The notes under the pieces: model-generated
Told to the model about the DNA's origin: nothing
Databases searched by the model: none
What the model saw: the letters and a program-made list of their open reading frames with translations, nothing else
NCBI GenBank assembly: GCA_015222205.1
Contig: JADFUW010000001.1
Span: 44 to 64,043, forward strand
From: Chloroflexota bacterium
Lineage (GTDB): Bacteria; Chloroflexota; Dehalococcoidia; Dehalococcoidales; UBA5760
Length of the DNA: 64,000 nt
Reading direction: 5' to 3'
Shown: piece after piece, positions 46,595 to 63,912 of the stretch
Layout of the letters: each line of letters opens with the position of its first letter
How positions within the stretch are numbered: the first letter of the stretch is position 1
Position numbers and translations under genes: made by a program

Positions 46595-46807
46595 CTAAGT
46601 ATAGACGGCTATGACTACTGCTTCTTTGGGGTTATATTCATCAAAGAAGATGACAGCTACCTTCCGGCCCAGTGCCATTTCGGCAGTGGGTAGATTTCTG
46701 GCCACGGTAACACCCTTAAGATAAGCCTTATAGCTACCAGTGAGCTGGATAGTAGCTTCGTAGTCTGTAGAATTAAAACCCTTTAGTATTGCTTTCTTAA
46801 GTCTCAT
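46595..46807 (-). CDS. Small beta-rich protein; last gene of the phage-like structural operon
   Basis: 70-aa ORF with AAGGAG RBS, co-oriented with the cluster. Confidence 0.65.
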   Translation of the reverse strand: MRLKKAILKGFNSTDYEATIQLTGSYKAYLKGVTVARNLPTAEMALGRKVAVIFFDEYNPKEAVVIAVYT

Positions 46808-46835
46808 TTTGCTTATCTCCTTTAAATTTTTAATA

Positions 46836-46918
46836 ACCCTATCCCCTTTATCCCCTTCCCCTTAACAAGGGGAAGGGGAGGATATTTTAAGAGGGGCTTT
46901 GCCCCTCTAACTCCCCCG
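46836..46918. repeat. REP-like double-hairpin repeat
   Basis: Near-identical to 8623-8710. Confidence 0.8.
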
Positions 46919-46988
46919 ATGTCAGGGGGTATGGACAGGCGACAGAAGAAGAGCCTATTAGTAATCCTTGATTACTACCTCGGGGGAT

Positions 46989-48992
46989 TTATACTGCTCC
47001 CAGTAGCAACCGCTCCTCGTATTCCCTGCGGAGAGGGTGGTAAACCAGAATTAGTCCGAGTACCCTCTTTTTTTCACTACTAAGCCCCACTCGGCTGTCG
47101 GTTATGTCAATGACATCATATAGCTGCTGTCCGCAATTGGGCGGGATGCGAATAGCCCCGCTAGTTGATTCTATCTCAGCCTGCCTTAAATAGGCCTCCC
47201 CTCGCTGCTCGGCTTGAGACACGCTACCTATATTCCTGTCCTCAAGCTGGTGTAGCCGGTCATAGAGCCTGTCTATCTCATCCCAGGAGAAGCGGTCAAC
47301 AACAATTGGCTCATCATTTATCGGGTCGTAGCCCTCAACCTGAATGCGATTAAGCTCCCAGCCTCCCTTTTGGTATTTTCCGTCTAGTATGGGATGGGCT
47401 GAGCCATAGGAATACACAGAACTATCGGCGGACTCAGGATTAACCACGTAGGCTTTACTGCCCTCGATAAACACGACATCGGGGACGAAGGATAGTAGCT
47501 TTCTTAAGACCGTATCCCCGGTATTATTAGGATGGATGGTAAAGTCCGGGTAGTAGCTATCTAAAACTGTTGACTGAGATTTAACCTCAAGCTTGAGTCC
47601 ACATCGGCCTAACACAAAAGCCAGGAGTTCTTTAACGCTCATATCATCACTTGCCTTATTCCACCGGAACTGGTGTCGGGCTCGCCAGTTTTTAGCTAAG
47701 TCCCAGCCGTCTGAGGCATGTAGAATAAGGCTGGCTTTGCCCCCGGAGCTGGTATGCTCACAGGCTGTAACCCAGAAAGCTAGACCGGAACTAATCTCGT
47801 TGCCCTGAGAGGTAGTATAGCCCGGGCTTAGCTCTAACTGACAGCCTATATCAAGGACGGTAAGCTCGCCCTCCCTCGGTGAGGCATAGTGCCCGTTACT
47901 GTTATCTAGCTCGACTATTAGCCTCCCTTCCCCTTTAGTGAGTTCCTGCCTTACACTTAAGACATCAGCGGTTAATTCAAGGCTCTCCTCGGTGAGTTTT
48001 GCCCGCCATACACCGCTGGGACTTGACAGCCAGCAGTAGTCGCCATAATGGGCTATGGCCAGTCCGTACTCACTGGACAGGTTAAACGGCACTGGCTCAT
48101 GCCACAGGTTATTACTAAAATCGGTGTCGGGGACAGAGTGTGACCAGAAGGGGCGGCTGTAGGCTTCGGTGCCGGTAAACTTCTCAATGAAGAAACACCG
48201 ATAGGCATCGGGCTTAGCCATAAACGCCCGGCGGTATTCAAAGTTACCATCTGAGGGGGCTGAAGCAAACGGCTTTAAGCCAGACCAGGTACCTGATGGT
48301 AGCTCACCGCCGTCGCCGTAGATAAGCGACCACAGCTTAAAGTTACCATCTGAGTCCTTACCGGTAATAAAGAGATTAAAGTCGCTATCATAACAAGCGG
48401 CCACTCCGGATAAATCACCGGTGGTTTTATCCCAGGCGACCTTGCTCTGCCAGCTACCACCTACATACTTTTTAACATACAGGGTTGCCTGGTCAGCAAA
48501 GAACAGGGCGATATCACCGTTTGGCTTATAGCTGGCAGCGATACCGTAGATAGCCGTGGTTGGCGAGTAATCAATAAGCTCTGGAGTGCCCCAGCTAGCC
48601 CCGTAATCGGTGCTTTTTAGCTGGTAAATTCCCCGGTCGCTCTTTATCCAGAAGATAGAGACCTCAGCCCCCAGCGAGCTGGCGGTTACGATAACGGCAT
48701 TATACTGGTTACAGTATGTCCACTGGCTGAAATCTGATTCCGGGTTGGGGTTAGCTACCCTTTGCCGGTAGAGCTTCCTGCCATCGGCTGGGGGCGTCAG
48801 CCTCAGCCTGATGAGAGAGCCATCACCGGGGATAGTTAAGGCGTGAAAGTAGTCAGTCTCGGCGCCGGTGTACAGCCGTGTCCAGTCTAACCTCGGAGTA
48901 CCGGTGATTTTATTCTTGGCTTCAACCTTGACATAAGGGGTGCGGCTGGCTTCCTTCTGAGCGGCTAGCAGCGTTGGCGATAGGCTTCTCAA
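46989..48992 (-). CDS. Putative virion tail/baseplate-hub-like protein with beta-propeller region
   Basis: 667 aa; Asp-box STDYGASW; C-terminal QLYDVIDITD similar to tail hub ends; AGGAGG-TTG start. Confidence 0.55.
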   Translation of the reverse strand: MRSLSPTLLAAQKEASRTPYVKVEAKNKITGTPRLDWTRLYTGAETDYFHALTIPGDGSLIRLRLTPPADGRKLYRQRVANPNPESDFSQWTYCNQYNAVIVTASSLGAEVSIFWIKSDRGIYQLKSTDYGASWGTPELIDYSPTTAIYGIAASYKPNGDIALFFADQATLYVKKYVGGSWQSKVAWDKTTGDLSGVAACYDSDFNLFITGKDSDGNFKLWSLIYGDGGELPSGTWSGLKPFASAPSDGNFEYRRAFMAKPDAYRCFFIEKFTGTEAYSRPFWSHSVPDTDFSNNLWHEPVPFNLSSEYGLAIAHYGDYCWLSSPSGVWRAKLTEESLELTADVLSVRQELTKGEGRLIVELDNSNGHYASPREGELTVLDIGCQLELSPGYTTSQGNEISSGLAFWVTACEHTSSGGKASLILHASDGWDLAKNWRARHQFRWNKASDDMSVKELLAFVLGRCGLKLEVKSQSTVLDSYYPDFTIHPNNTGDTVLRKLLSFVPDVVFIEGSKAYVVNPESADSSVYSYGSAHPILDGKYQKGGWELNRIQVEGYDPINDEPIVVDRFSWDEIDRLYDRLHQLEDRNIGSVSQAEQRGEAYLRQAEIESTSGAIRIPPNCGQQLYDVIDITDSRVGLSSEKKRVLGLILVYHPLRREYEERLLLGAV

Positions 48993-49005
48993 GTTAGACC
49001 TCCTT

Positions 49006-49200
49006 TTAATTCCCTAACTGTCCTGGGACCCAGGGCGTTCCCCAGAAGATATGGCCGAGCAGGATGCCGATACCTGTGGCTAGCCCTAGCCAGAGAAGCG
49101 GCTTGCGGTGATAGGAGTCCCGGATAATATAGGTCCAGGGACGTCTGCCTACCCTTGACCACATGGTTTTATAAAGGCAACACAGCCAATCTTGCTTCAT
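49006..49200 (-). CDS. Small single-TM protein
   Basis: MKQDWLCC...LLWLGLATGIGILLGHIFWG. Confidence 0.55.
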   Translation of the reverse strand: MKQDWLCCLYKTMWSRVGRRPWTYIIRDSYHRKPLLWLGLATGIGILLGHIFWGTPWVPGQLGN

Positions 49201-49314
49201 AGCTCTCTTCAAGCCTCACCTTCTTGGTCGCAGGGTTTTATAAAGACGACACAGCCGATCTTGCTTCATAGCTCTCTTTAAGCCTCACCTTCTTGGTCAC
49301 AGGGTTTTATAAAG
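49165..49314. repeat. 69-bp tandem repeat (two copies plus a partial third)
   Basis: ggttttataaag recurs at 49165, 49234 and 49303. Confidence 0.9.
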
Positions 49315-49334
49315 ATAACGTGCCCAGTTCTGCT

Positions 49335-49523
49335 TTATGGCTTTTCCTTGAGCCGTTTCATGGCTCTCTCGCCGAAGTATTCTATGATGACGGCGGTAAT
49401 TAGCCCGGCGAGCAGTTGAGGTATCTCCACCCCGGTTATGACACAGATGCCATAAACCAAAAACCCCCAGACGATGATAAATGGTCTGATAATACTCTTT
49501 ATGAAGTCTGCCCACTCTTTCAT
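49335..49523 (-). CDS. Holin-like two-TM protein
   Basis: 62 aa, two TM helices, ends YFGERAMKRLKEKP (basic tail). Confidence 0.55.
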   Translation of the reverse strand: MKEWADFIKSIIRPFIIVWGFLVYGICVITGVEIPQLLAGLITAVIIEYFGERAMKRLKEKP

Positions 49524-49569
49524 AACTTGCTTCCTGTAGCCTTCTTAAGCATCCTCACTCAGTCTGGGT

Positions 49570-50160
49570 CTATTCTGTGAAGAGCTGCTGGGTTCTAAGC
49601 CTCTGCCGCCGGCCCAGCTGCTTTAGCCTCTCCCTGAAGATTACCAGCCTCTCGTTGCCCCAGGCGCGGTATTCATCAGCAGTCATCTTACCCCCGATAT
49701 TTACCTTGTTTATGGAAAAGGCGGCCCAGCTAATAGCGGCATAGCCACAGGCACCGGTAGCTACTAAGTCCTCATATTTGTCGGGGACAGTGGAGCCGTT
49801 AGCATCAATGGTGTGGAGTGTCCCGTAGTAAACATAGCAATCTGAGCCGTTTGGCTCAGGGCCGCTTATTATGGTTAAGGCATCCCCCCAGATGGAGAAG
49901 CGCTGATACCTAGCCGGGGACTCATCTACTGGATATTCTACGGCTTGAACCATAACCCGATTGCTAAGGCTGGAGATATCCACCTCTCTGGAGCCACTTA
50001 CCGTCGGCAGGGTAGCCTTGGCCGGCAGTGGCACCCTCTCTGATAGCTCCCCTAAGGCGTGGTTAATATGTCTGCTTAGTTCATCATCTGACCACTGGTA
50101 AGGGGTGGTCTCATCCTTAAGGTCACGTCTGACCAGGGTTATCATCTCAGATATATTCAT
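49570..50160 (-). CDS. Putative head-tail adaptor protein
   Basis: LVRRDL.D...WSDDEL..HIN.AL N-terminus typical of phage adaptors; located downstream of the capsid gene. Confidence 0.6.
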   Translation of the reverse strand: MNISEMITLVRRDLKDETTPYQWSDDELSRHINHALGELSERVPLPAKATLPTVSGSREVDISSLSNRVMVQAVEYPVDESPARYQRFSIWGDALTIISGPEPNGSDCYVYYGTLHTIDANGSTVPDKYEDLVATGACGYAAISWAAFSINKVNIGGKMTADEYRAWGNERLVIFRERLKQLGRRQRLRTQQLFTE

Positions 50161-50235
50161 AGATTACCTCCTCAGGCGGTATTTCTGTGTGTCCTGCCTT
50201 GATGCACAGTCTTATATTATCGGCAGCGGCTGAAG

Positions 50236-51894
50236 TCATAAGTTCACCCTCTTGGATGGTATTCCTGCCTTACCTTTCCTGGTAGGCAGTTTCATATCGC
50301 TGGCAGCGGGTGAGGTCATAATCTTAGCTCCAAGCCGCTCTGAGCCTGAGCCTACCTCACTGGCGATGGTTAGCACCAGCAGACTAGCTAGGACGTCAAG
50401 TCCGGCGCCGTTATCGCTGGAGAAGAAGGCTTTATATAAAGTAGCTATATCCAGTCCTGAGCCGATATCAGGAAGGGCTATTTTTCTATTCAGCAGCTCG
50501 TCTATACCCGAGCCGGCCTCAGTGGTAGCTAGGGCAGAGATTAAACCGATAAAGGTGTCTAACCCGGAACCGGTTTCCGCTCTGGCTAAAGCGGCTAACA
50601 GGGTTAAGCTGGCATCACTACCCAGTCCGCTGTCGGTGTGATGCAGTAATCTAGCCAGTAAAGACTCACTACCGGTCACCGCCTCAGAGGCAGTTAGTAG
50701 CCGAGTAAGAAGTGATTCAACGCCTGAGCCTGAGTCAGAGCCAGTCTTTAGGGTTGGCTGAGCTAGCTCGGTGACAACATCTACCCCTGCCCCTGTTTCA
50801 CTACCTGTCAATATGGCAAGGAGCGCCACCAGGGCTTCCATCCCGGAGCCAACATCAGGGCGCTCGTGTAACGCACTTGGGTAATCGTTTTTGGTATCTG
50901 CCCCGTTGCCAGTATCAGATTTACTTAATGTGGCTAATGGATTACCTGAGATTTTGACATCTACCCCTGAGCCAGTATCAGAGGAGGTCTTTTCAGTAAT
51001 AGTTACCGCTGTGGCATACCCAACAAGGAAGAAGTCAACATCCAAATCTGATATTTTACCCTCAATTACCCTTGAGGCATCACATTCAACTACTCCCCAA
51101 TGGTGTTTATATGTGTGTTGGTATATATCTTCAGCAGTATCATCTTTTCGTAAACCATAACTGAGTTGCCATGCTCCTGTAACTTCTATAATACCCATCA
51201 AGGGGCTTGCATCAGGAAGGGCTGTGAGGTCTAACCATTCGTCAGTGTTACCTAGACTCAGGTCAGTAGCGTTAGTATTAAAGGTTGCTCCCTCAGTGAT
51301 ATACCCAGTTAACCAACAGTCTTGATTGATAAGTTCTATATATCCTTCACAAATTTGACCGGCATCACACCCGATAATGGCACTAAAACAACTATGTTGG
51401 TTAGCATAGAATGTTCTGTCGTCTGAACTACCATTCTTTCTAAAGCCAAACTCATTTACATGAGCATATACTTCAAATATCAAGCCTATAGCATTAGGAG
51501 CAGGTGTGGAGCAATCTATATCTGTCCATGCACCTGTATCATCTAATGACTTATCGGTGGCATTAGTGGCAAAGGTGACTCCAGCCATAGTGTAGCCAAC
51601 AACATAAATGTCAATGGAGCTGGTGCTTTCAACCCAGGCTTCAAAGATACGGCTGGCATCTACGCCAATCATTGCCCATGTATGGCTTTCTTCCCCAAAG
51701 TCGTAATGCCTATCATCCGTTGAGCCATTTTTTCTTAAGCCTACATACCTATCGGAGCCATAGGTACAAACAACATGCAGAATAACACCTGTAGCATCAG
51801 CAGGAATAGAACCACTAGCATCCATAGGTGTCCACTCTTTAGTAGCACCAGCTACAATCTCGGTTGGAGTAATTGGATAGAAGGTCTGAGCCAT
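50236..51894 (-). CDS. Putative virion fibre/spike protein
   Basis: Three ~95-aa repeats, then periodic (S/T)(D/E)xGxGx(D/E) motifs. Confidence 0.55.
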   Translation of the reverse strand: MAQTFYPITPTEIVAGATKEWTPMDASGSIPADATGVILHVVCTYGSDRYVGLRKNGSTDDRHYDFGEESHTWAMIGVDASRIFEAWVESTSSIDIYVVGYTMAGVTFATNATDKSLDDTGAWTDIDCSTPAPNAIGLIFEVYAHVNEFGFRKNGSSDDRTFYANQHSCFSAIIGCDAGQICEGYIELINQDCWLTGYITEGATFNTNATDLSLGNTDEWLDLTALPDASPLMGIIEVTGAWQLSYGLRKDDTAEDIYQHTYKHHWGVVECDASRVIEGKISDLDVDFFLVGYATAVTITEKTSSDTGSGVDVKISGNPLATLSKSDTGNGADTKNDYPSALHERPDVGSGMEALVALLAILTGSETGAGVDVVTELAQPTLKTGSDSGSGVESLLTRLLTASEAVTGSESLLARLLHHTDSGLGSDASLTLLAALARAETGSGLDTFIGLISALATTEAGSGIDELLNRKIALPDIGSGLDIATLYKAFFSSDNGAGLDVLASLLVLTIASEVGSGSERLGAKIMTSPAASDMKLPTRKGKAGIPSKRVNL

Positions 51895-52262
51895 TACATC
51901 ACCTGCATCGCTTTTTCTTTGACCTCAAGCAAAGGCTTCTTTAGTTCAGCCCTAATAAGATTGGTTCGCTCAATCTGCTCGTTAAGCCCATCCTCAACCT
52001 CAGTAAGCTGTTGCTCTGGGGTAACTTCCTCATACAAGCCTTGACTGATAGCCCAAGCCTTATAATCATTCCAAAGTTTAGACTTAGCTATCTTATAAGT
52101 CTCTTCTTCTTTAGCGGTTACACCAGTAGTCCTCTTCTTCTGGTAAAAGGCTGTGCTCAAGTTCTGGACGGCAATCTCATACTCGCTGTCCTTCTGAAGC
52201 TTGGCTTGGCGTTGTCCATCAGTTAAGCTAGATGGGCGTTTTGGGCGATAAATAGTCTCCAT
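51894..52262 (-). CDS. Hypothetical helical protein translationally coupled to the fibre gene
   Basis: TAATG overlap; GGAGG RBS. Confidence 0.6.
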   Translation of the reverse strand: METIYRPKRPSSLTDGQRQAKLQKDSEYEIAVQNLSTAFYQKKRTTGVTAKEEETYKIAKSKLWNDYKAWAISQGLYEEVTPEQQLTEVEDGLNEQIERTNLIRAELKKPLLEVKEKAMQVM

Positions 52263-52334
52263 AGAGCCTCCTCATGGGCAATAGGGAGTAGATAAAGCCT
52301 TAGCCGTCTCCTACCCCCTATTACCAGGTCTTTA

Positions 52335-52856
52335 TCAGCTTAGTGTTATGGATACCTCCAGAGTCCACGTGCCCGATGTTTTAGTGCCTAAGTCTTCTAC
52401 CTTACGGTTGAGGCACTTAGCGCTGGTTGATTGCTTAACCACCCATTCCTTCCAGGCGTAGTTAGCGTCGCCCGTTGCGAAGCTAGACTTGAAGGTTGCT
52501 TTCTGGCTGGTTGATGTCGGGTAGCCAGACTCCATGCCCTTATAGGTCTTGTTGCTGGCTGCTTGAAGGTCAGTCTGGGTAGCATCAGCGGCCGTATCCG
52601 AATCCCCAACGCCAATCTGGGCATGAGAATTGTCGTAAATGTGGTCAACACCAGAAACTATCCCAGTGATTAAGTCCCACATCTCGTCAATGCCTGAATT
52701 TAGGAGGCAATTTCCCTCGCCCTCTATAACCTCATAGGGCTTGAAGAGTTCGTGGAACTTAGTCTCCTCGCCTCTGGCACGGTAGGGCTCTATATCCTCG
52801 TGATACTTGCTGAGCCGGTATTGGCAGTGCCAGTTTGCTAGTTCTTGCTTTTTCAT
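52335..52856 (-). CDS. Phage structural protein (fibre-base/decoration-like)
   Basis: IGVGDS.TAA.ATQTDL...ANYAWKEW..LNRKV pattern; AGGAGG RBS; immediately follows the capsid gene. Confidence 0.6.
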   Translation of the reverse strand: MKKQELANWHCQYRLSKYHEDIEPYRARGEETKFHELFKPYEVIEGEGNCLLNSGIDEMWDLITGIVSGVDHIYDNSHAQIGVGDSDTAADATQTDLQAASNKTYKGMESGYPTSTSQKATFKSSFATGDANYAWKEWVVKQSTSAKCLNRKVEDLGTKTSGTWTLEVSITLS

Positions 52857-52932
52857 TGTTAACCTCCTATCTCCGATGTGATAGTTTCGTACATCCTTCT
52901 CTAGTATTACCCATAAAAGTGTGTCTGAAAAT

Positions 52933-53856
52933 TTAGTCGGTAACCCCAATCAGGGCGGCGGCCTTAACTGCTGAGAACAGTGCCAGGGAGCAATACCACT
53001 TAATCCTGGTTCGTGAGGCATCCTTGGTCTCCAGTGGCCCCACCGGCTCTACCTGCAAGTGTCCGGGGCTGGTTAAGCCGCAGAGGGCACCCTCTCCGAG
53101 CTGGATGGCATAGATGGTGGAACAGGTGCCACCGGTAGTCACGGTCTCCAGGCCTGATTCCAGGGTGTGAGTATCCAGAATCCAGTCATTAACCCCGATA
53201 GGGATGCCGTCCCAGAGCTGGATAAAGTTACCGAAGTTGTCCCGGTCCGTTACCATCATACCGGAGTTAGCTGTCCTGACTAGGGTGTTAATCTTCCGCC
53301 GGGTGCGCCGGCTCATCAGGAGTATAGCGGGTTTACCCCCCTTTATGGCGTCAACAAGCTCGTCTAGCTTGTCCAGGGTAAGGGTGGCTCCAGTATCTCC
53401 CATAGCTATCACCTGGTCGCTTGAGGTAGTGGTGTCAATAAGCAACCTTAGGCCGTCAAACTGCTTGGAATTGGTTACTGAATCTCCATAGATAAAGGTC
53501 TCCTCAAACTTATCCTTGAGTGCCTTGGCCTTGAGCTCAACAACCGCTCCCTCCAGATCCTGGAGATTACTGCGGGTAGCCTTGAGGAAATTATCAATAT
53601 CGGCATCTCCCCCCATAATCTTCAGGGTGGTTGTTATCTGCTCAAAGGTTGGGGTTGACTCTGCCCAGGTATCACCAACATCATAGAAATCAATCTCCGG
53701 CAGGGTCTTCTCCTGGTTGTAGGTCAGGCCGTTACCGGCAATTTCAATGAAGGGCAACCGTTGCAGTATGGGTGAATCCTTAATGATGGTCTCTACCACC
53801 CCTTGAAGTAGCATATCGTTGGACAATTTGGCGGCTTCGTCTAATGTTAGTGCCAT
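52933..53856 (-). CDS. Phage major capsid protein (HK97-fold type)
   Basis: SPILQRLPF, ETFIYGD...FDGL, LDELVD, LLMSR, WDGIPI, RTRIKWY; follows portal and scaffold. Confidence 0.88.
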   Translation of the reverse strand: MALTLDEAAKLSNDMLLQGVVETIIKDSPILQRLPFIEIAGNGLTYNQEKTLPEIDFYDVGDTWAESTPTFEQITTTLKIMGGDADIDNFLKATRSNLQDLEGAVVELKAKALKDKFEETFIYGDSVTNSKQFDGLRLLIDTTTSSDQVIAMGDTGATLTLDKLDELVDAIKGGKPAILLMSRRTRRKINTLVRTANSGMMVTDRDNFGNFIQLWDGIPIGVNDWILDTHTLESGLETVTTGGTCSTIYAIQLGEGALCGLTSPGHLQVEPVGPLETKDASRTRIKWYCSLALFSAVKAAALIGVTD

Positions 53857-53912
53857 TTATTTATTACCTCCTTTAGTGGAAACTTATTGTTGCGGGTTTA
53901 TGATTTCGTGTT

Positions 53913-54383
53913 TTATCGTTTGCTTCCTATTGCATATTGAATCTTCTCCCGTGGGGATAGACCAGAAAGGTCGGGTGGCGTCCGCTGTGGTGCTCCGACA
54001 GGAACCCTAACTGCCGAAATCTCAGCCTCCAGTCCCTGCCTAACCCGGGTTATCATGCCTTGAGCCTGCTGCAGTGACTCGTTGACCGAATCAATGCTGT
54101 CACCGCTGATAAGCTCCTCAAGCACTTCGGGGTGAGCCTCAATCACCACTTTCTTGTAGCTGGCTACTGCCTCAGCCAGAGAGTCATTCGTGGCTTTGAG
54201 CCTCTCATCTGACTGGGCTGTTGCCTGCTCCAGCTCGGTGATGCGGGCATTGGCTTTAGTTAGCGCCTCGTCCTTTTGGGCTATCAAGCCCTCAAGCTCA
54301 GCAATGCTGGATGCTTCGTTTGCCTCTGTCTCCTCCTCTTCGGGAATAGGGTCTTGACTTGGGTTTAGTTCATCATCAGCCAA
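53913..54383 (-). CDS. Putative capsid scaffolding protein
   Basis: Acidic N-terminus, coiled coil, C-terminal DLSGLSPREKI; located between portal and capsid. Confidence 0.65.
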   Translation of the reverse strand: MADDELNPSQDPIPEEEETEANEASSIAELEGLIAQKDEALTKANARITELEQATAQSDERLKATNDSLAEAVASYKKVVIEAHPEVLEELISGDSIDSVNESLQQAQGMITRVRQGLEAEISAVRVPVGAPQRTPPDLSGLSPREKIQYAIGSKR

Positions 54384-54401
54384 CTTTCGCTCTCCTTTAG
54401 G

Positions 54402-55790: not shown

Positions 55791-56097
55791 TTCTCACCCT
55801 CTTTAATGCTCTCTGTACTGTCCGCTGACTAATGCCAAACATCAAAGCCAGCTCTCTTATTCCCTTCCCCTCAGTGGTAAATAGCCTTAACATCTCCCTG
55901 TCTCGTAAACTTTTGATATAATGCTGCCTGCCTCCGGGTTCGTCATAGATGCACCTCTCAAAGGGGCAATTGAGGCAGGAATCGGCAAACTCGCAGCCGT
56001 CATCCTGATAGTGGCAATATTCAGGCGGCAAATCTAGCTCATCAAGAAAACCCTCGTTGTTTTCAGGCATGGTCTCGGTGCTTTCTTCTGGCTCCAT
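55783..56097 (-). CDS. Cys-cluster plus HTH regulator
   Basis: C-x6-C-x5-C-x2-C-x4-C followed by IRELALMFGISQRTVQRAL. Confidence 0.75.
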   Translation of the reverse strand: MEPEESTETMPENNEGFLDELDLPPEYCHYQDDGCEFADSCLNCPFERCIYDEPGGRQHYIKSLRDREMLRLFTTEGKGIRELALMFGISQRTVQRALKRVRNE

Positions 56098-56208: not shown

Positions 56209-56243
56209 CATAACCCAACTCCTCAAAAGTATTCGGTGATGCT

Positions 56244-56285
56244 AGATTAGCACATATGTTCTAATACCGTCAATAGTGTTTTGTC
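56244..56285 (-). promoter_or_regulatory. Promoter with LexA-box-like operator (structural operon)
   Basis: TTGACG-18-TAATCT (with TG extension) overlapped by TAGAACATATGTGCTA (56248-56263). Confidence 0.7.
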
Positions 56286-56408
56286 ATATTTTGACCTCAC
56301 CACTAATGTTGGTTTTATCATGGTTTGTCCTGCCTAACTCCGTGGCTTGACAAAAGCAGTTTTTTGCGCTATTATTGCTTTAATAAAGTAATATTTACAT
56401 TTAAGACT

Positions 56409-56615
56409 ATGACACCCTTGGATAATTATTTTAATGTGATAGAGGCCAGCCACCGTCTCAAGGTTCACCCGGAGACGGTAAAGCGGCTGTGTCGGCAGGG
56501 GGATTTGCCGGCGGTAAAGCTCCATAATACCTGGCTGATTAATCGGGATATCCTGGATAACTTCGCTGCTACCTATGTCCCCCAGCGTGGTGCCAGGAGA
56601 AGATTGATGAAATAG
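56409..56615 (+). CDS. Excisionase-like (HTH_17) DNA-binding protein
   Basis: VIEASHRLKVHPETVKRLCRQGDLPAVKL..TWLI. Confidence 0.85.
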   Translation: MTPLDNYFNVIEASHRLKVHPETVKRLCRQGDLPAVKLHNTWLINRDILDNFAATYVPQRGARRRLMK

Positions 56616-56703
56616 AAGGGAGCTAGAGGGGAGATTTATCGCTGCTCTAGAATAAGTCTCCCCTCGCCCTATAAACGGAGATTAAAAATGGGTAGGTTGC
56701 CGA

Positions 56704-58242
56704 ATGAAAAACAGTAGAATCTCACGCATTTTAGCTATAGCTTTTATCTTATCCTTGTTAGCCGTGCTTATACCAGCCACTCCAGTTCTGGCACAACCTG
56801 AGATTACCCTCTCTCCAACCTCTGGCTCAGTGGGCACCGAGGTTACTGTAACTGGAATAGACTTTGAGTCCTTTAAGGGGACTGAGGTCAGTGTCTTATT
56901 TGATAATGAGGAGATTGATAGCAGCCCCTTAACTATTCCTGAGAGTGGGACCTTCACCGTCAGTTTTGATGTTCCCGATGATGCTGAACCGGGAAGAGCC
57001 TATGTTAGGGTTAGAACCATGCTCGGTGGCGAAGCCAGGGAATCGTTTATTGTCCGGGAGCCTGAAATCGAGCTATCCGTCGGGGAGGGTACAGTGGGCA
57101 CGATGGTGACCATTGATGGCCATGGTTTTTATGCCCAGGGAACAGTGGTTCTTTACTACTACAAGGATGGTACTAGGGTCAGTGTGGGTGAAGTGGCGAC
57201 TACTCCAACCGGGGAGTTTACGTGTGCTATTACTGTTCCTGACAGCATTGCTGGGGACCATAAGATTATGGGTGAGGACGCACTGGACAACTCGGCTGAA
57301 GCCAGCTTTGAAGTGGTTCCTGCCATTACCTTAAGCTCGTCTTCGGGGGCTATGGGTGATGAGTTAACCGTCAGTGGTACTGGTTTCGGTAATAAGAGTG
57401 ATGTCACCATTTATTTTAATAATATTGTGATGGCTGGGGATACCGCTAATAAATACGGTAGTTTTGAAACCACTTTTAATGTGCCGACAATGGCATCAGG
57501 TAGCTATGATATCAAGGCGGAGGATGATGCTGACAACACTGGTAAGGCAGAGTTTACGGTCGTTGCTGGCGCTAGCCTCAGCCAATCTACGGGTGATGTC
57601 GGCACACCACTCATAGTTAGTGGTGTTGGTTTTATGGCTGGTGCGCCGGTGGCTATTACCTATGATGACCTTGAAGTAGTCACGGCTGTTGCTGGTAATA
57701 ACGGAGCCTTTTCATCTGCCTTTAATGTCCCGCCCAGTATTGGTGGTAATCACACTATAACCGTTACTGATGGCACCAACACGGCGACATGTATCTTTAC
57801 TATGGAAGCAGAGGCACCGTTAACACCAGCGCTGCTCTTACCGGAAGACAGCACTAAAGCCGGGGCAGCGGCAAGCTTTGACTGGGAGGATGTTACCGAC
57901 CCCAGTGGCGTGACCTATACCCTTCAGGTGGCTACTAAAGACGATTTTACGGTGTCTTCTATAGTGCTGGAGAAGACAGGGCTTGCTGATTCTGAATATG
58001 CCGTTGCTGATGAAGAGGAGCTGGAGCCAAGCACTAAGGAGTCCCCTTACTACTGGCGGGTAAAGGCGGTTGATAGTGCTTCTAACGAGAGTGAGTGGTC
58101 GAGTGTCAGGTCATTCTATGTTGGCTCTTCCTTTACCCTGCCGAACACAGTTAGGAACATATTGATAGGGGTCGCTATCGGGGCGGCTGTTTTCTTTGGC
58201 TTCTGGCTGGGCAGGAGGACTGCCTACTCTCGGCGGGTATAA
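56704..58242 (+). CDS. IPT/TIG-repeat cell-surface protein
   Basis: Signal peptide; repeated ITLSPTSG.VG..VTV.G.GF units; FN3-like YYWRVKAVD; C-terminal TM plus basic tail. Confidence 0.85.
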   Translation: MKNSRISRILAIAFILSLLAVLIPATPVLAQPEITLSPTSGSVGTEVTVTGIDFESFKGTEVSVLFDNEEIDSSPLTIPESGTFTVSFDVPDDAEPGRAYVRVRTMLGGEARESFIVREPEIELSVGEGTVGTMVTIDGHGFYAQGTVVLYYYKDGTRVSVGEVATTPTGEFTCAITVPDSIAGDHKIMGEDALDNSAEASFEVVPAITLSSSSGAMGDELTVSGTGFGNKSDVTIYFNNIVMAGDTANKYGSFETTFNVPTMASGSYDIKAEDDADNTGKAEFTVVAGASLSQSTGDVGTPLIVSGVGFMAGAPVAITYDDLEVVTAVAGNNGAFSSAFNVPPSIGGNHTITVTDGTNTATCIFTMEAEAPLTPALLLPEDSTKAGAAASFDWEDVTDPSGVTYTLQVATKDDFTVSSIVLEKTGLADSEYAVADEEELEPSTKESPYYWRVKAVDSASNESEWSSVRSFYVGSSFTLPNTVRNILIGVAIGAAVFFGFWLGRRTAYSRRV

Positions 58243-58400
58243 TCTTTAGGCTCTTTTACAAAACATATTAACTTACTTTATAATATAGGGGATTAGGGGA
58301 GTATGAGGGAACAGCTTATCTTGAGAAATAGCCTAACTTCCTCTATAATTTAACGTTATATGATATAGTGATATAGGGAAATACAGGAGGTAAGTTTCTG

Positions 58401-60056
58401 GTGAAGTATACTAAAAAAATCTACCGGGCACTGGTTATAGGTGTTATCCTTTCACTATTGGTGATAGTTATACCTGCCTCCCCAGCCCTGGCGGCTAGGG
58501 AGATTGACCTAGATACCGACGAGGGTGACATTGGCGACTATATTGATATTGATGGCAATGATTGGCCCCCCAGTGACCCTGGCGCAGACCCGCCATATTA
58601 TAAATATGTTGATATATATTTTACTTCGGATGAAGCGGTAAAGGGTGATGACATTGACGACGAGGTTGAGATCTACGAGCTTGTGGAAGAGAAACTTCAG
58701 GTTGATACAAGTGGTGACTTTGGTGCCCGTTTCAGAGCGCCGGATGAACTTACCGATGGCAGTCCGGACGAAGATGTGCGTGGTGGCACCTATTATGTCT
58801 GTGTTACCTATTGGGATGATGAAGACATTAAAGCTGTCGCCGATTACACTGTAATTGCGGGTAAGATTACTAAGTTTTCCCCCGATGAGGGTCCGGTAGG
58901 CACTGAGGTGGAGATTAACGGTGAGGACTTTGGCGATGGTGAAGACATTACTATAAAGTATGATGGTGATACGTTGGACATAGAAAGTGGCGATGATGCA
59001 GCCGATAGCAGTGGTGATGTTGACTGCACCATCATCATTCCGGAAAGTATTGCCGGCGACCATACACTCACTATCAGTGATGAGTCTCTCTCCGAGGTTG
59101 AAGAGGTATTTACCGTGGAGCCGGAGATAACCATCAGCCCTACCCAGGCACCACCCGGCGATACGGCAACAGTTACCGGGACCGGTTACGGAAAGAAAGT
59201 AGACGTGGATATCACCCTTGATGGTGATGTTGTGGCTACTAAGACAACCGATAGTGACGGTGGCTTCACCGTCAGCTTTGAGGTTCCCGAGGTGGATGAA
59301 GGTGACTATGAGGTTACCGCGGAGGATGAGGATAATAATGATGCTACGGTAGATTTCACCGTGGAGAAGGGTATTGAGGTCAGCGCCAGCGTGACTACCG
59401 GTCATGTCGGCAGTGAGATAACCATCAGCGGCTTTGGCTTCAAGGCTAACTCCCCGATAACTATCACCTATACCAGTGAGCCGGTTGTGTTTACTACCAC
59501 CAGTGATGCCGATGGGGTTTTCACCTACACCTTTGATGTTCCCCAGAGCGGGGCTGGTGCGCATACGATAACGGCTACTGATGGCACCGATACCTTGCAG
59601 GTTTCATTTACTATGGAGTCGCAGGCGCCATCAATACCAGCGCCGCTATTACCAGAGATGGATACTAAGGCTGAGGCGCTAGCAGAGTTTGACTGGGAAA
59701 GTGTTACTGACGACAGCGGGGTGACCTATACCCTCCAGATTGCTACCAGTGAGGATTTTACGGCCTCTTCTATAGTGCTGGAAAAGACGGGCCTTGCTTC
59801 TTCTGAGTACACCCTTACTAAAGAAGAAGCCCTGGAGTCAACGGCAAAGGAAGACCCCTACTACTGGAGACTAAAGGCAGTTGATGGTGCCTCCAATGAG
59901 AGTGGCTGGACAGGCGTTGGGTCATTCTATGTTAGCTCTTCCTTGTTTGACCTATCCGGTAAGTCCTGGCTGATACATCTGTGGTGGGGTTTAGGGGCTT
60001 TGGGTGCTGGTTTTGCTGGCTACTTCGTGGGTAAGAGACGGTCGTATTACTATTAA
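58401..60056 (+). CDS. IPT/TIG-repeat cell-surface protein (paralog)
   Basis: Same architecture; FDWE.VTD.SGVTYTLQ and YYWR.KAVD.ASNES.W shared with the upstream gene. Confidence 0.85.
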   Translation: MKYTKKIYRALVIGVILSLLVIVIPASPALAAREIDLDTDEGDIGDYIDIDGNDWPPSDPGADPPYYKYVDIYFTSDEAVKGDDIDDEVEIYELVEEKLQVDTSGDFGARFRAPDELTDGSPDEDVRGGTYYVCVTYWDDEDIKAVADYTVIAGKITKFSPDEGPVGTEVEINGEDFGDGEDITIKYDGDTLDIESGDDAADSSGDVDCTIIIPESIAGDHTLTISDESLSEVEEVFTVEPEITISPTQAPPGDTATVTGTGYGKKVDVDITLDGDVVATKTTDSDGGFTVSFEVPEVDEGDYEVTAEDEDNNDATVDFTVEKGIEVSASVTTGHVGSEITISGFGFKANSPITITYTSEPVVFTTTSDADGVFTYTFDVPQSGAGAHTITATDGTDTLQVSFTMESQAPSIPAPLLPEMDTKAEALAEFDWESVTDDSGVTYTLQIATSEDFTASSIVLEKTGLASSEYTLTKEEALESTAKEDPYYWRLKAVDGASNESGWTGVGSFYVSSSLFDLSGKSWLIHLWWGLGALGAGFAGYFVGKRRSYYY

Positions 60057-60080
60057 GCTAATTAAGATATGGTAATCGCA

Positions 60081-60149
60081 CCCCCTCTCCTTCCAAAGGG
60101 GAGGGGGTATTTATTATAAAAGAAGGGCGCCAGCCCCTCTTAAACTCCC
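60081..60149. repeat. REP-like repeat; its distal part is repeated at 61905-61946
   Basis: tatttattataaaagaagggc is identical at 60108-60128 and 61905-61925. Confidence 0.8.
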
Positions 60150-60184
60150 TTTATGAAGCTCGCATCTGTAGCTTGTTAATATAG

Positions 60185-60328
60185 AGTTTGTTAAAGCGTG
60201 GTATCAATGGAGTGTATCACGCTGTGAGTGAGAAGTATCTACAGAACTACATCAACGAGTATAGCTTTAGATACAACCACAGGAATGATGAGAAGCCGAT
60301 GTTTAAGACTGTTTTGGGGAAGATTTAG
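60185..60328 (+). pseudogene. IS1595-family transposase C-terminal remnant
   Basis: Translates SLLKRGINGVYHAVSEKYLQNYINEYSFRYNHRNDEKPMFKTVLGKI*. Confidence 0.85.
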
Positions 60329-60705
60329 GCTGGTATACGTTGATAAATCCGTTCTAAATCCGTGACAAATATCTTCTTTGTAAATGGTTTGGGGCCTGAT
60401 TTCAATAAAGCTATAACTATTTCCTTGATTATCGGGTCTGTAACTACTCTGCCTCTTAATATAGAATGATACTTTGGGGAGAAAAATCTCTTAAAACCCT
60501 CAATCTCAATACCAACAATCTTGCCTTTATCGGGATTTACCCTTACCCACAAATCACCATCCCAGTCAACCGAAACTGCGGGTATTGGTATTGGGAGTTG
60601 GAGCATTAGGCTATCTATTTCCTTGTCGTAATTAACGGCAAAAGACCTAATATTATCTATCGTATCAAAATCAATCTTGTTCCTTAGATTGCTCGCCCTC
60701 TCCAT
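60325..60705 (-). CDS. DUF2283-like putative antitoxin
   Basis: VNYDKEIDSLML...LWVRVNP..GKIVGIEI. Confidence 0.55.
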   Translation of the reverse strand: MERASNLRNKIDFDTIDNIRSFAVNYDKEIDSLMLQLPIPIPAVSVDWDGDLWVRVNPDKGKIVGIEIEGFKRFFSPKYHSILRGRVVTDPIIKEIVIALLKSGPKPFTKKIFVTDLERIYQRIPA

Positions 60706-61040
60706 ACTAGCACCTCCCCTATTTGTGGTGTAGCACAAGCCATAGCACTTATAACACCACCGCATAATTCTTCCACTTCGTTCATATTGTATTCTATTAC
60801 AATTCTTATATACCTTTCATTCTTGCCTAATTGGGCAAGATAACATTTCCTATAGAATGTAAACCTATTAGCATAAGAACGAGTTTTATTTACAAAATCC
60901 GGTTTGATGATTATTGATTTAACGATATTTTGGAGACCAACCATTTCAGCGTGAGTACATATGTGCCCCCATCTTTTTCTGGAGCAACTAACCATTTTCT
61001 TAAAAACATCCACGCACTCAAATTCTTTTCGGCTCCCCAT
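60684..61040 (-). CDS. Putative RelE-like (PBECR-type) toxin
   Basis: RWGHI..H.EM...I..PDFV...FYRK...YIRIVIEY; overlaps the DUF2283-like gene. Confidence 0.45.
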   Translation of the reverse strand: MGSRKEFECVDVFKKMVSCSRKRWGHICTHAEMVGLQNIVKSIIIKPDFVNKTRSYANRFTFYRKCYLAQLGKNERYIRIVIEYNMNEVEELCGGVISAMACATPQIGEVLVWRGRAI

Positions 61041-61331
61041 ATGCAAGATATATCCTTACTTATGAGAGGGCTTTGGCTTTTCAATCCGTTGGCTTACCTT
61101 CTTCAAAACAGACACGAATTCTTGCTTTGTTGTAGATAATTTCTTAACATCAATATCTTTTACTTCAGACATTTTTACTGCCACTTAACATTTACGCAAA
61201 TGTTAACTACACCTTTATTGTAAACCACACTATTGACGCTTTGTCAAGTAAATATGCGTATATTTACAAACCCTATTGACATCCCCTCCCATAGTGCTAT
61301 AATCAGTCTGCATTAAGCTAGGAGGAGTGTT

Positions 61332-61646
61332 ATGGCTAACGAATGTATATGGACGGGTGCCTCCGGTAAGAAGTATAAATATACAATCTATGCAATGGAT
61401 ACCGATTGGAATGACGTGGCAGGAAATTACATCTTTGCCAAAGAGACCTCACCCCACAATTGGGTCGCTGTATATATAGGCGAAACTGAAAGCTTTAAAG
61501 AACGGCTACCTAATCACAATGAGTTACCGTGTGTCCATCGCAATGGGGGCACACATATACACGCACATACTAACTCAGACAGCAGTGCCAGATTAGAAGA
61601 GGAAGCAGATTTACTTGCAGACCAAGGCACACCCTGCAATCAATGA
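61332..61646 (+). CDS. GIY-YIG-like small nuclease-domain protein
   Basis: GNYIF...VYIGETESFKERL..H...E.DL. Confidence 0.6.
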   Translation: MANECIWTGASGKKYKYTIYAMDTDWNDVAGNYIFAKETSPHNWVAVYIGETESFKERLPNHNELPCVHRNGGTHIHAHTNSDSSARLEEEADLLADQGTPCNQ

Positions 61647-61864
61647 TTCGTTGTGTTTTGATTTGTTAATTCGCCCAAGAACCTTGCTACAGCAATAGAT
61701 ATATGACTTGATGGTTTCCAGTTACCATCCCAATCTTGGCATAATACAACAAAACAGTGGTCATCAAGTGTTATGCCACATTGGCTGTGTCCTGCATCAA
61801 CCAACCACTTCGGTTTCCAATTAGGCTTTGCATCTGCTATACTTTGTTCTGTTTGCATTACCAT
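61640..61864 (-). CDS. Hypothetical protein
   Basis: 74-aa ORF with AGGAG RBS. Confidence 0.45.
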   Translation of the reverse strand: MVMQTEQSIADAKPNWKPKWLVDAGHSQCGITLDDHCFVVLCQDWDGNWKPSSHISIAVARFLGELTNQNTTNH

Positions 61865-61936
61865 TTATTTACTCCTATACGTTACCTCAAGGGATACTTA
61901 CCAATATTTATTATAAAAGAAGGGCACAAGCCCCTG

Positions 61937-63406
61937 TTAAGCTCCCCTGGCGCTTCGTGGTGAGTATTGCCTTGAGGCTTCCAGCAGGAGTGCTAGGCTC
62001 ATCAGGAAGTCATCATGTCCCCGGGCAGGGTCAACATAGAAATTCATCGTCTGGTTAGGGCGATACTGACTTCTGGCTCGCTCCATCTCCAACCAGAACT
62101 CCTGATACTCAGGTGAGCCATCCCCGGTATAGACCTTCAATCTGCCGGCGTTAACGGCGGCGAGCAGGTTAAAGCCTAGCTGTGATTTTGACTGAGCCGT
62201 GAAGGTAAAAGGGGACACCCTTGAGCCTAATGACTGCCTGAGGAATGAGCTTACCGGCTGACCGACCCCCGTGGCGTCCACCACTACCTTGCGGCAGTGC
62301 CACACATTCTTGAGAATATCAATTAACTGGGGATAGAGTTCGGTGTGTTTCTTTCCTGTCCACCAGTAGTGCTCTATAACCCTAATGAGGGGCTCTTTAA
62401 TAACCTCACTACATGTTGAGAAATCCAGCTCGCCGATAGTAACCACGGTAGAATCCTGACGGGGCTTGAGGGCCCTCAAGCTGGCTCCTTCCCCCTCCTC
62501 AGCCTCCCCCGCCAGGTCAATACCAGCGATGTAGACCTTGCCGGGGTCAGGGTGGTGCTTTCGGGTATGCTCCCCATTTAGTTGAGCTCTCTGCTGGTGA
62601 CTTAAATAACCCCCGCCGCTATGAATGGGTAGCAGTCGGTATTGGGTGAGGAAAAGGGGGTGGTTTTCCCCCAGGCGCTGACGCTCGGCGTCGACATATT
62701 TCAGGTAATCGGGGTTATGCTTAGCCACTTCCTGCCAGTCATAGCGAAAGTGGCGTCTCTGGCCGTCTTTCCTCTCCAGTTCAAGATTGGAATTTTTTAT
62801 CTCCTCCAGCAGGGTAGAATCATCCCAGGTCGTGCCATAGTGAACCGTGGTAACATTGGTAGTTGCCCCCATCGGCTTAAACTCTTTATTATACTTCTCG
62901 TTGCTCACATCCTGGGACTCGTCTATTTCCAGCAGTATATGGGCGGTATTACCCACCACATTGGCTGACTCATCCGCCGATAGGAATATTGCCCGGGCAT
63001 TACCCAGTCTGATGATATAGCCGAGTTCAGCTACCCAGATGCTATTAAAACCGGCATCGTTTAGCCTGTCCTTGAGGCGCATCATGGAGATGACGGTCTG
63101 CGGCTTAAAGGTAGGCGAGCACTTAATCAGGTTCTTGGGCTCAGCCATAAATAGGGTTAGAAGCAGAAGCTCAAGCTGGGCGGAGAGTTCATTCTTGCCT
63201 CCCTGACGGGCTATTTCTACGGAGAAGGTAAGCCCCTTCCGGCCAAAAACACTGTCTAGTATCGCCAGGGCTACCTCCCGCTGATAGGGTCTAAGTCTGC
63301 TTATTTTGGCCCTTGAAGATGTAGCATTATCGGGTGTCGGCTGATTATTTGTTGATGGTGGCACCGATGCCGATGCCGAGTGGCAGGGCGATATCTCTGA
63401 GGACAT
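61937..63406 (-). CDS. Phage terminase large subunit
   Basis: LRPYQ, Walker A ARQGGKN, Walker B LLEIDE, nuclease GIDLAG / VVDATGVG / HDD. Confidence 0.9.
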   Translation of the reverse strand: MSSEISPCHSASASVPPSTNNQPTPDNATSSRAKISRLRPYQREVALAILDSVFGRKGLTFSVEIARQGGKNELSAQLELLLLTLFMAEPKNLIKCSPTFKPQTVISMMRLKDRLNDAGFNSIWVAELGYIIRLGNARAIFLSADESANVVGNTAHILLEIDESQDVSNEKYNKEFKPMGATTNVTTVHYGTTWDDSTLLEEIKNSNLELERKDGQRRHFRYDWQEVAKHNPDYLKYVDAERQRLGENHPLFLTQYRLLPIHSGGGYLSHQQRAQLNGEHTRKHHPDPGKVYIAGIDLAGEAEEGEGASLRALKPRQDSTVVTIGELDFSTCSEVIKEPLIRVIEHYWWTGKKHTELYPQLIDILKNVWHCRKVVVDATGVGQPVSSFLRQSLGSRVSPFTFTAQSKSQLGFNLLAAVNAGRLKVYTGDGSPEYQEFWLEMERARSQYRPNQTMNFYVDPARGHDDFLMSLALLLEASRQYSPRSARGA

Positions 63407-63707
63407 TACCTATTGCCTCCTTCAGCCCCTTCTTGTCCTTCTTGCTGATGTTATACCTTGTCCTGACCAGCCGGGCCAGGGTATTGGTTGCCTGCATAAT
63501 GAGATTGATGTTGTCCGGGTCGTGGGCAATTAAGGATTTTATCTTTACCCTTAACAGGGCAATCTCATCGTCAATACCCTCCACGCCAGTAGCTAGCTCA
63601 AAGTCGAGCTTTTCTGCCTCGTCAAGAACCCTGGAGTAGAAGCCGTGCTTTCTAGCGTTTTGGTTGCCCTTGGGGGCGCCCCTTTTTCTCTCTATTTTGG
63701 CTGACAT
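63345..63707 (-). CDS. Putative terminase small subunit
   Basis: GAPKGNQNARKHG motif and IDDEIALLRVKI helix; directly upstream of the large subunit. Confidence 0.7.
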   Translation of the reverse strand: MSAKIERKRGAPKGNQNARKHGFYSRVLDEAEKLDFELATGVEGIDDEIALLRVKIKSLIAHDPDNINLIMQATNTLARLVRTRYNISKKDKKGLKEAIGNVLRDIALPLGIGIGATINK

Positions 63708-63837
63708 CTGGTTTATCTCCACCCTGCTTATTGTTCCCACAGTGTCTACTATTCAGCATCTGGGCTGAGGCAAGTATAATAGCGTGGGCGGCTAGGTCCC
63801 ATCTCTGGTTTTCTATAGCTAACCTGAGTAGTCTCAT
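63652..63837 (-). CDS. Small hypothetical protein heading the terminase operon
   Basis: MRLLRLAIENQRWDLAAHAII; GAGGG RBS. Confidence 0.5.
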   Translation of the reverse strand: MRLLRLAIENQRWDLAAHAIILASAQMLNSRHCGNNKQGGDKPDVSQNREKKGRPQGQPKR

Positions 63838-63870
63838 AACTTTACCCTCGTCAGGGGATATCTAGGGTTT

Positions 63871-63912
63871 ATGATAGCACATATGTTCTATTTAAGGCTA
63901 TAGAGTTTTGTC
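63871..63912 (-). promoter_or_regulatory. Promoter with LexA-box-like operator (terminase operon)
   Basis: Extended -10 TGC-TATCAT overlapped by TAGAACATATGTGCTA (63875-63890), identical to the 56248 copy. Confidence 0.7.

Follow-up and report, generated by a model that had tools for sequence, protein, structure and literature searches.

The DNA analysed here is a 64,000-nucleotide stretch of a Chloroflexota genome of the order Dehalococcoidales (GenBank assembly GCA_015222205.1, contig JADFUW010000001.1, positions 44 to 64,043; hereafter, the window), and its right-hand part carries a set of virion and DNA-packaging genes in which an initial annotation, made from the sequence alone, had seen a domesticated particle system resembling a gene transfer agent (GTA). 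All open reading frames (ORFs) named in that annotation were recovered, intact and open, in the ORF list of the window. The locus spans 17,295 bp, with 7,740 bp of core coding sequence, and comprises two operons on the minus strand: operon A consists of a 61-amino-acid (aa) ORF and the genes for the small (TerS) and large (TerL) terminase subunits, and operon B encodes a Mor-like regulator, an SPP1-type portal, a scaffold, the capsid, three accessory proteins, an SU10-type adaptor, two small hydrophobic proteins, a 667-aa protein and a 70-aa protein. From right to left, the features are as follows:

63876..63889, minus strand: operator 1, AGAACATATGTGCT, a LexA-type box continuing into an extended -10 element (TG-C-TATCAT), recognised from the consensus and from GTDB loci.
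63652..63837, minus strand: 61-aa ORF 5' of TerS, also present in wild phages (48% identity to that of phage G571), with no family match.
63345..63707, minus strand: TerS, likely starting at ATG 63707 (ORF open from 63740), with a ribosome-binding site (RBS); phrog_1889, E = 1e-7.
61937..63406, minus strand: TerL; phrog_5909 and, weakly, Terminase_6C.
56704..61864, no strand assigned: intervening cargo outside the virion module (Ig/TIG surface proteins, DUF2283, a weak GIY-YIG match and unknowns).
56704-58242 and 58401-60056, plus strand: two Ig/TIG surface protein genes; the Ig gene is a fixed neighbour within the order.
56409..56615, plus strand: excisionase-like HTH_17 gene, divergent from operon B and sharing its operator region; PF12728, E = 2.5e-10, and phrog_66.
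56249..56262, minus strand: operator 2, a 14-mer identical to operator 1.
55783..56097, minus strand: Mor-like regulator with a Cys cluster and a helix-turn-helix; PF08765 and phrog_836.
54402..55790, minus strand: portal, SPP1 gp6-like; PF05133, E = 2e-27, and phrog_64.
53913..54383, minus strand: scaffold, a coiled coil, present in 31 of 40 loci.
52933..53856, minus strand: major capsid protein, 307 aa; phrog_212, E = 2.5e-70, and PF05065.
52335..52856, minus strand: accessory virion protein ("fibre base"), likely starting at ATG 52856, with an RBS; phrog_23653 (function unknown), E = 5e-43.
51894..52262, minus strand: 122-aa accessory ORF without a reliable family.
50236..51894, minus strand: 552-aa fibre- or decoration-like protein in a variable slot, its N-terminal 300 aa resembling viral-protein clusters in predicted structure.
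49570..50160, minus strand: head-tail adaptor of the SU10 (short-tail) type; PF24175, E = 2e-11, and an atlas score of 0.99.
49335..49523, minus strand: 62-aa hydrophobic ORF, putatively holin-like by hydropathy, with no match to a holin family.
49006..49212, minus strand: 68-aa small membrane-type ORF, found in wild phages too.
46989..48992, minus strand: predicted tail-tip hub of the gp27/Mu gp44/VgrG type with an inserted beta-propeller, from AF2, Foldseek and VIA.
46835..46917, no strand assigned: host REP-like palindromic repeat (blastn: 29 pieces across 13 contigs, counting self-hits).
46595..46807, minus strand: predicted stand-alone OB fold, 70 aa, without a needle, from AF2 and VIA.

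The gene roles first proposed stood, by family match, for the regulator, portal, capsid, TerS, TerL and adaptor, and the scaffold is assigned by position together with a weak phrog_206 match. In TerL, what we take to be the Walker A- and B-like motifs, motif III and the acidic nuclease residues are invariant across 16 relatives. The good RBSs that had been described are clear at most core genes, but none is clear at the Mor-like gene or at the fibre gene. The fibre-base and fibre genes are part of the operon but accessory to it: of the 40 loci from relatives, no more than 2 gave a blastp match; LamG-type proteins occupy the relatives' slot at the position of the 552-aa protein. The reported absence of integrase, replication, tape-measure, tube, sheath and endolysin genes was borne out, since none of these families was matched among the 22 to 25 ORFs scanned between 43.6 and 63.7 kb. 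The locus has no linked integrase and replication module of the kind found in an active temperate prophage; att sites were not searched for.

The largest departure from the initial annotation concerns the "tail-like" genes, which had been read as those of a short-tailed particle. The AF2 model of the 667-aa protein (pLDDT 93.7) was matched by Foldseek to hubs of the gp27/Mu gp44/VgrG type (E = 2e-16); in VIA, the hub part aligned over 325 residues (Z 26.5, root-mean-square deviation [rmsd] 3.2), and a sialidase/lectin-like propeller, inserted at residues 35 to 335 or thereabouts, over 251 (Z 24.8, rmsd 2.7). On its modelled fold, the protein combines a gp27/VgrG hub with a beta-propeller set into it. 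A podovirus nozzle was considered for it and rejected, since the structure matches listed are hubs, sialidases and lectins, with no nozzles among them. The 70-aa protein was modelled as a lone OB fold (pLDDT 90.7), whose top matches, OB domains of proteasome ATPases (Z 9.6), are tied with the spike OB domains of Mu, eCIS and VgrG (Z 9.2, rmsd 2.0 and 65 aligned residues for a Mu baseplate chain), and because of this tie, its putative role as a hub cap draws on gene context. The locus pairs a short-tail-type adaptor with a predicted hub and OB fold of the long-tail type rather than with parts of a podovirus nozzle. Tail-tube and contractile-sheath families were absent from the locus (neither was searched for genome-wide), and the tape-measure family PF10145 was missing from all 5 genomes tested. 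The hub gene comes straight after the adaptor gene in at least seven relatives (G041, G151, G023, G054, G090, G059 and G033), and the adaptor would appear to dock the hub directly, without a tube. A PDB sequence search with the adaptor gave as its best match a phage "Adaptor protein gp12" (E = 0.12); the same search with the capsid gave nothing significant, and consequently, no T number is assigned. The hub itself varies: it is encoded in two parts in phage G567, where the C-terminal one is joined to a LamG fibre, and is split in the same way in the chromosomal copies G011 and G296 (L427, L054 and L055 for the split hubs), while the hub of G210 carries a frameshift close to its C terminus. In genus g4 (L034 and L037), it is shortened by internal or terminal loss (about residues 547 to 615 in G086) and the portal branch is long, which suggests relaxed or altered constraints.

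Both operons are preceded by the same 14-mer, AGAACATATGTGCT, in agreement with the co-regulation proposed earlier, and its two copies are the only strong sites in the assembly, as scored with a matrix built mostly from such boxes. With a box defined as having at most one mismatch to AGAAC-N4-GTTCT, one was found ahead of Mor in 12 of 22 loci and ahead of TerS in 13 of 18, versus 4.1% of random windows; among further loci, it lies upstream of TerS in 55 of 71 chromosomal GTDB loci versus 1 of 43 integrase-bearing viral loci. The scaffold gene has a box in 10 of 18 loci in which it is split from the portal gene and in 0 of 13 in which the two are adjacent, counts in which kin are not independent. 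The same palindrome directly precedes all five lexA genes found in four relatives. Judging from the consensus, the conserved mismatch of the box supplies the TG of the extended -10 element; the promoter scan of the window did not list the two operon promoters. On this sequence evidence, both operons are probably under the control of LexA, and thereby of DNA damage, with the Mor-like regulator probably acting as a late activator. The LexA protein of Dehalococcoides reportedly binds a box of the Gram-positive type. In G182, from the same genus, there are two lexA paralogues (L111 and L113), both with a box.

An SOS-type operator, together with the variable fibre slot, the lectin-like propeller and the VgrG-like hub, would also suit a particle resembling PBSX of Bacillus subtilis, a fixed, SOS-inducible defective phage with a contractile tail and an endolysin that packs host DNA and kills. 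The locus would then encode an SOS-induced particle that packs random host DNA and serves as a kin-discriminating killer or as a lysis or biofilm device, without transfer. However, neither the contractile tail, endolysin and killing parts of PBSX nor a sheath, tube, tape measure or beta-helical needle was found at the locus, and no toxin or immunity family was matched among its ORFs; we therefore regard this explanation as quite unlikely.

Host genes flank the locus: XRE, FAD oxidoreductase, rpsU and yqeY genes on the left and, past 64 kb and up to the contig end, a zinc-ribbon protein gene, an RNase HI-like ORF and an RNase P RNA-like sequence (names assigned by eye) on the right. The contig carries no integrase or replication gene, and the six matches to PF00589 (tyrosine recombinase) in the genome are all on other contigs. 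The two surface-protein genes said to separate the operons are present as Ig-domain genes, but they share the gap with the HTH_17 gene, DUF2283, a weak GIY-YIG ORF and two unknowns. The REP-like repeat inside the cluster was confirmed to be a dispersed host palindrome. Base composition, described as resembling that of the housekeeping genes, is host-like but off-center: the 4-mer distance of the locus is 0.128, versus a median of 0.108 (89th percentile of 99 genome windows) and versus 0.177 and 0.253 for two wild phages, and GC content at third codon positions (GC3) is 0.39 in the fibre gene. Within the gap, positions 60325-61864 form a patch with a GC content of 0.40 that holds DUF2283, a 120-aa unknown and the weak GIY-YIG ORF, with a perfect consensus promoter at 61276 ahead of its ORFs; since the patch is missing at the same spot in G182, it is a recent insertion. 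A tRNA-Gly called by ARAGORN at 59360-59457 lies inside the second Ig-domain gene and was dismissed as probably spurious.

Searches for the capsid, TerL and portal across relatives showed them to be widespread and mostly single copy. The capsid was found in 177 of 301 genomes of the class (144 of the 241 high-quality ones), TerL in 209 of 301, the portal in 108 of 151 genomes of the order and the hub in 59 of 301 genomes of the phylum; the class tallies include one unpublished genome (G227) and the phylum tally two (G324 and G533), and the conclusions are independent of all three. Capsid matches with an E value below 1e-80 occurred in 161 genomes, with a single match in 154 of those by our own count from the table; identity was 52 to 89% among the 150 capsid matches listed and 63 to 82% for RpoB in 30 genomes. 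Synteny is conserved as well: the core order TerS-TerL, Mor-portal and scaffold-capsid-adaptor-hub-OB recurs in 40 loci, hand-picked from positive genomes, and breaks at varying joints with host genes interposed. In many relatives, TerL and the capsid gene are separated by 45 kb to more than 1 Mb. A zinc-ribbon gene stands immediately 5' of TerS in 38 of the 60 GTDB loci with enough flank, and nearly all of these loci have record titles naming Dehalococcoidales, Dehalococcoidia or Chloroflexota. No integrase was found in 80 GTDB loci, and the integrase profile had no match in 76 further chromosomal regions. One record titled Deltaproteobacteria (L298) has a TerL gene with the zinc-ribbon/RNase H flank and is probably a mislabelled assembly, and in L164 (positions 534-7640), a copy that is otherwise of the chromosomal type has a serine-integrase element between its scaffold and its capsid gene.

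In other classes of the Chloroflexota, this terminase, adaptor, hub and OB protein recur, combined with a different portal and a Phage_capsid_4 fusion of 650 to 716 aa. This second head type was seen in L126, L127, L128, L131, L133, L134, L123 and L141 (542 aa in L141), in some of which an amidase occupies the holin slot. The peptidoglycan gene mraY was not found in any of four Dehalococcoidia tested, which is consistent with there being no need for an endolysin, and is present in G465, the one second-head-type genome tested, whose operon has the amidase. Family f87, from another class, has a lone full-length propeller-hub gene beside the housekeeping genes folD/FTCD (L124, L125, L130, L135 and L136), with no other virion gene within the regions fetched.

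For ten genes of the element, the ratio of nonsynonymous to synonymous substitution rates (dN/dS; Nei-Gojobori) between this genome and G182 was 0.067 to 0.233, far below 1, which had been named beforehand as support; seven host genes of the same pair gave 0.042 to 0.192 at similar dS, and pooled medians were 0.10 to 0.21 (pairs not independent). Since the phage genes, at 0.10 to 0.28, are likewise under purifying selection, low dN/dS shows function and not, by itself, domestication. A comparison of TerL with flanking host genes in 40 loci gave a Mantel r of 0.70, with 20 of 37 splits shared and, among strong splits, 7 shared and none in conflict, although co-transfer of these linked genes is possible; a concatenate of the structural genes compared with RpoB in 24 genomes gave an r of 0.60, with 9 strong splits shared. 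On the strength of its fixed site, its selection and its lack of an integrase, we are confident that the locus is domesticated. It is not an ordinary prophage, nor is it a member of the RcGTA family. One or more ordinary prophages decaying at an integration hotspot would account for the close phage relatives described below and for the decay seen in G046, G121 and G067 and in several truncated portals. Most of the order, however, has the locus once and at the same site, its dN/dS is housekeeping-like, no integrase was found in those chromosomal regions that were checked and the operator is missing from the phages; this explanation is largely refuted already and appears extremely improbable.

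Close wild relatives were found in IMG/VR, where three scans (best 80 of each) yielded 209 loci, mostly fragments of 4 to 15 kb and not de-duplicated by contig. A tyrosine integrase was present in 43 of the 209, and in 41 of the 70 in which TerL abuts the portal. Phage G567 is 18,400 bp long, with terminal repeats and without a recognised tube or tape measure among its ORFs; in G569 (17,171 bp) and G566 (18,518 bp), the hub ORF spans the contig ends, which points to circular genomes; and G571 (17,319 bp) encodes an integrase, RepO and a PolX-thumb protein. All four share the tube-less TerS-TerL-portal-scaffold-capsid-adaptor-hub module with the locus, and identity between G571 and the window ranges from 66 to 79% (TerS 78, TerL 79, portal 71, capsid 76, hub 66 and OB protein 76%). 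In contrast to the locus, the wild phages encode a tyrosine integrase and RepO/HNH/PolX-like proteins, their genes form one continuous operon, and the box is missing from the five in which it was looked for. The order in L365 is integrase-HNH-TerS-TerL-Mor-portal, and the order from TerS to portal is likewise found in chromosomes of other orders. The parts sufficient for a tailed DNA-packaging particle are present at the locus, and the identical set makes up the whole virion module of the complete phage G567. The tube-less module would thus seem to be a natural virion, with a head that may hold about 17 to 18.5 kb, and judging from sequence relationships, the wild phages presumably infect Dehalococcoidia. 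Queries with a clade-B capsid and a type-2 TerL returned short fragments only, without an integrase; among cultured phages, the nearest capsid is 40% and the nearest TerL 32% identical, and the hub had no match. Most IMG/VR matches are short, integrase-less fragments resembling pieces of host chromosomes, and one 49.7-kb contig (L402) is a larger phage with DnaC, primase and Sak4-like genes and a TerL 64% identical to the family.

Regarding function, we lean slightly toward a GTA-like role. In our proposal, a small temperate Dehalococcoidia phage of 17 to 18.5 kb, without a tail tube, would have shed its integrase and replication genes, while those for virion and packaging would have become a host locus between yqeY/rpsU/FAD-oxidoreductase and zinc-ribbon/rnhA/rnpB, gaining a LexA-type operator. 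Going by the motif, DNA damage would lift LexA repression of both promoters, and the Mor-like protein may then boost late transcription. The head would be built by scaffold, portal and capsid, as is established for these families, and since the locus is unable to excise or replicate, TerS and TerL would load it with chromosomal DNA. The adaptor would close the head and attach directly to the gp27-type hub, a trimer; surface glycans would be bound by the propeller and by the variable fibres, and the OB protein may cap the hub. Here the folds are predicted, and the contacts are conjectural. Release would proceed without an endolysin, which would be unnecessary because the hosts appear to lack peptidoglycan. 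The particle would deliver host fragments of roughly 17 kb to kin, with genes occasionally swapped with wild phages. A more far-reaching reading, which we consider somewhat less likely than not, is a phylum-wide GTA that evolved independently, is switched by the SOS response and is built on a so far undescribed tube-less virion, its short-tail adaptor meeting the propeller-bearing gp27 hub directly, with wild phages of 17 to 18.5 kb still exchanging genes with it. Domestication would then be in progress, repeated or refreshed several times and possibly reversed, with phages re-arising from the tame locus, and the terminase would gain a capsid-independent role.

Several findings weigh against this proposal. 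With regard to control, lexA was not found in the assembly (89.8% complete), and recA has no box either here or in G182, so that the repressor is deduced from relatives. With regard to distribution, families f25 (0 of 18 genomes) and f26 (0 of 8) had no match with either the capsid or the TerL query. With regard to descent, of the 15 strong splits seen for the element, 4 disagree with RpoB in the 24 genomes, compared with none (r = 0.85) in a control of RpoB halves; TerL of genus g4 groups outside its order; and monophyly of 39 chromosomal capsids with respect to 18 phages plus an outgroup was rejected (p-AU = 0.00076, quick search). In the TerL, capsid, portal and hub trees, the clade formed by this genome, G182, G210 and G012 has G571 and G573 as sister or near-sister, and other phages group with G011, G296, G152 and G206. 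With distant outgroups and viral sequences ranked by how similar they are to the window, these trees are compatible with either direction of transfer between phage and chromosome. Since integrase-bearing phages interleave with chromosomal copies, the vertical inheritance initially proposed holds within the order but not cleanly class-wide, where congruence with RpoB is partial, and one domestication event for the whole class was rejected as a complete explanation. G260, G296 and G206 retain the box, and G260 also retains the same neighbours. Most simply, the locus would have been domesticated long ago and since refreshed through recombination with resident phages, or else there would have been several domestications.

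The decay mentioned above likewise qualifies the proposal. G046 and G121 have a common deletion from mid-portal to mid-hub in which the capsid gene is gone; in the G046 remnant, the portal and hub halves share a reading frame that meets a stop after 188 codons, and in the G121 remnant, the halves are out of frame (capsid-less remnants at L038:11022-13350, L039:11472-13758 and L142). In G067, little remains beyond TerS and a truncated TerL. Between G046 and G121, dN/dS is 0.106 for TerL and 0.068 for TerS, with terminase and hub halves near 0.1; the terminase is therefore under purifying selection in capsid-less genomes. Solo TerS-TerL pairs are, moreover, scattered in genera g24 and g4, with 2 to 6 matches per genome in several. 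Examples away from any portal are L432 to L437 (G090 and G017) and L439 to L442 and L447 (G086, G273 and G285); genus g24 has 5 to 6 TerL matches per genome, some nearly identical within a genome, which points to recent duplication, and G249 has 7. A terminase selected without a capsid and dispersed as solo pairs is unexplained by a pure GTA role. It would suit a domesticated defence or interference module, in which capsid, portal and terminase subunits, induced together by the SOS response, poison wild-phage assembly or divert it and transfer is a by-product. The wild phages, 66 to 79% identical in every virion gene, are close enough to co-assemble, and genes are apparently exchanged with them. 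Interference needs few genes, however, and here a full set, including hub, OB protein and variable fibres, is under purifying selection; we consider defence unlikely, whether it acts through mis-packaging of host DNA or through decoy particles.

Finally, at 17.3 kb, the locus is about one wild genome in length, so that self-transfer is possible, which is a further point against our proposal. A GTA particle is described in PMC5026251 as too small for all its own genes; since wild relatives package 17 to 18.5 kb in the same head module, this property may fail here, but it holds in relatives with far-apart operons. The matching size, the incongruent branches and the excisionase-like HTH_17 gene beside operon B (kept in G182, G210 and G012) would suit an element that is still selfish or helper assisted, packaging itself, or DNA from a pac site near terS in the manner of lateral transduction, and spreading by recombination. 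It is hard to reconcile with a TerL gene 45 kb to more than 1 Mb off the capsid in many relatives, with a cluster interrupted by host genes, with the lack of integrase and Rep and with trees that track the host within the order, and we judge it very unlikely.

Known GTAs include, besides RcGTA, whose cluster includes tube and tape-measure genes, BaGTA, VSH-1, Dd1 and VTA. Like these, the locus consists of head, packaging and tail-tip genes of phage origin, lacks integrase and replication genes, is multi-locus and is under purifying selection; host control, known for GTAs, is suggested here by the LexA-type box. According to PMC5026251, RcGTA has a multilocus genome under purifying selection, an HK97-family portal and a prohead protease in a cluster organised as a tailed-phage genome, and a capacity of about 4 kb, and its regulation by LexA is named in the reference list of that paper. 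The locus differs in its SPP1-type portal, phrog_212 capsid, separate scaffold, SU10-type adaptor and independent origin, in the absence of prohead protease, tube and tape-measure families and in a predicted capacity of probably about 17 kb, versus about 4 kb. Unlike known GTAs, it also has a LexA-type box directly on the structural promoters and close living phage relatives. Capsid-forming PICIs (cf-PICIs), which combine a small head-and-terminase module without a tail tube with their own integrase and replication genes and with borrowed tails, differ from the locus, which has no integrase or Rep and has its own hub, OB protein and fibres. Within the same host class, the IME1 elements of Dehalococcoides are mobile, inovirus-like and without tailed-phage hallmark genes (bioRxiv 10.64898/2026.09.15.751708); they are likewise virus-like but unrelated to the locus, and "terminase," "portal" and "GTA" do not occur in the text. 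Full-text literature searches (openly licensed PMC papers and bioRxiv) returned no description of the locus.

To our knowledge, GTAs are known from few lineages and have no close phage relatives, and the taming of a phage can therefore not be traced in them gene by gene. In the present case, the tame locus and its wild counterparts retain 66 to 79% identity; what sets the tame form apart is that it has lost integrase and Rep, acquired a LexA-type operator and had its operon split, and this close pair makes the origin and purpose of a GTA directly testable. The predicted architecture would be that of a tailed virus with a hub and without a tube. If our proposal is true, the Dehalococcoidia, which include subsurface and dechlorinating bacteria, would gain a built-in route of gene exchange.

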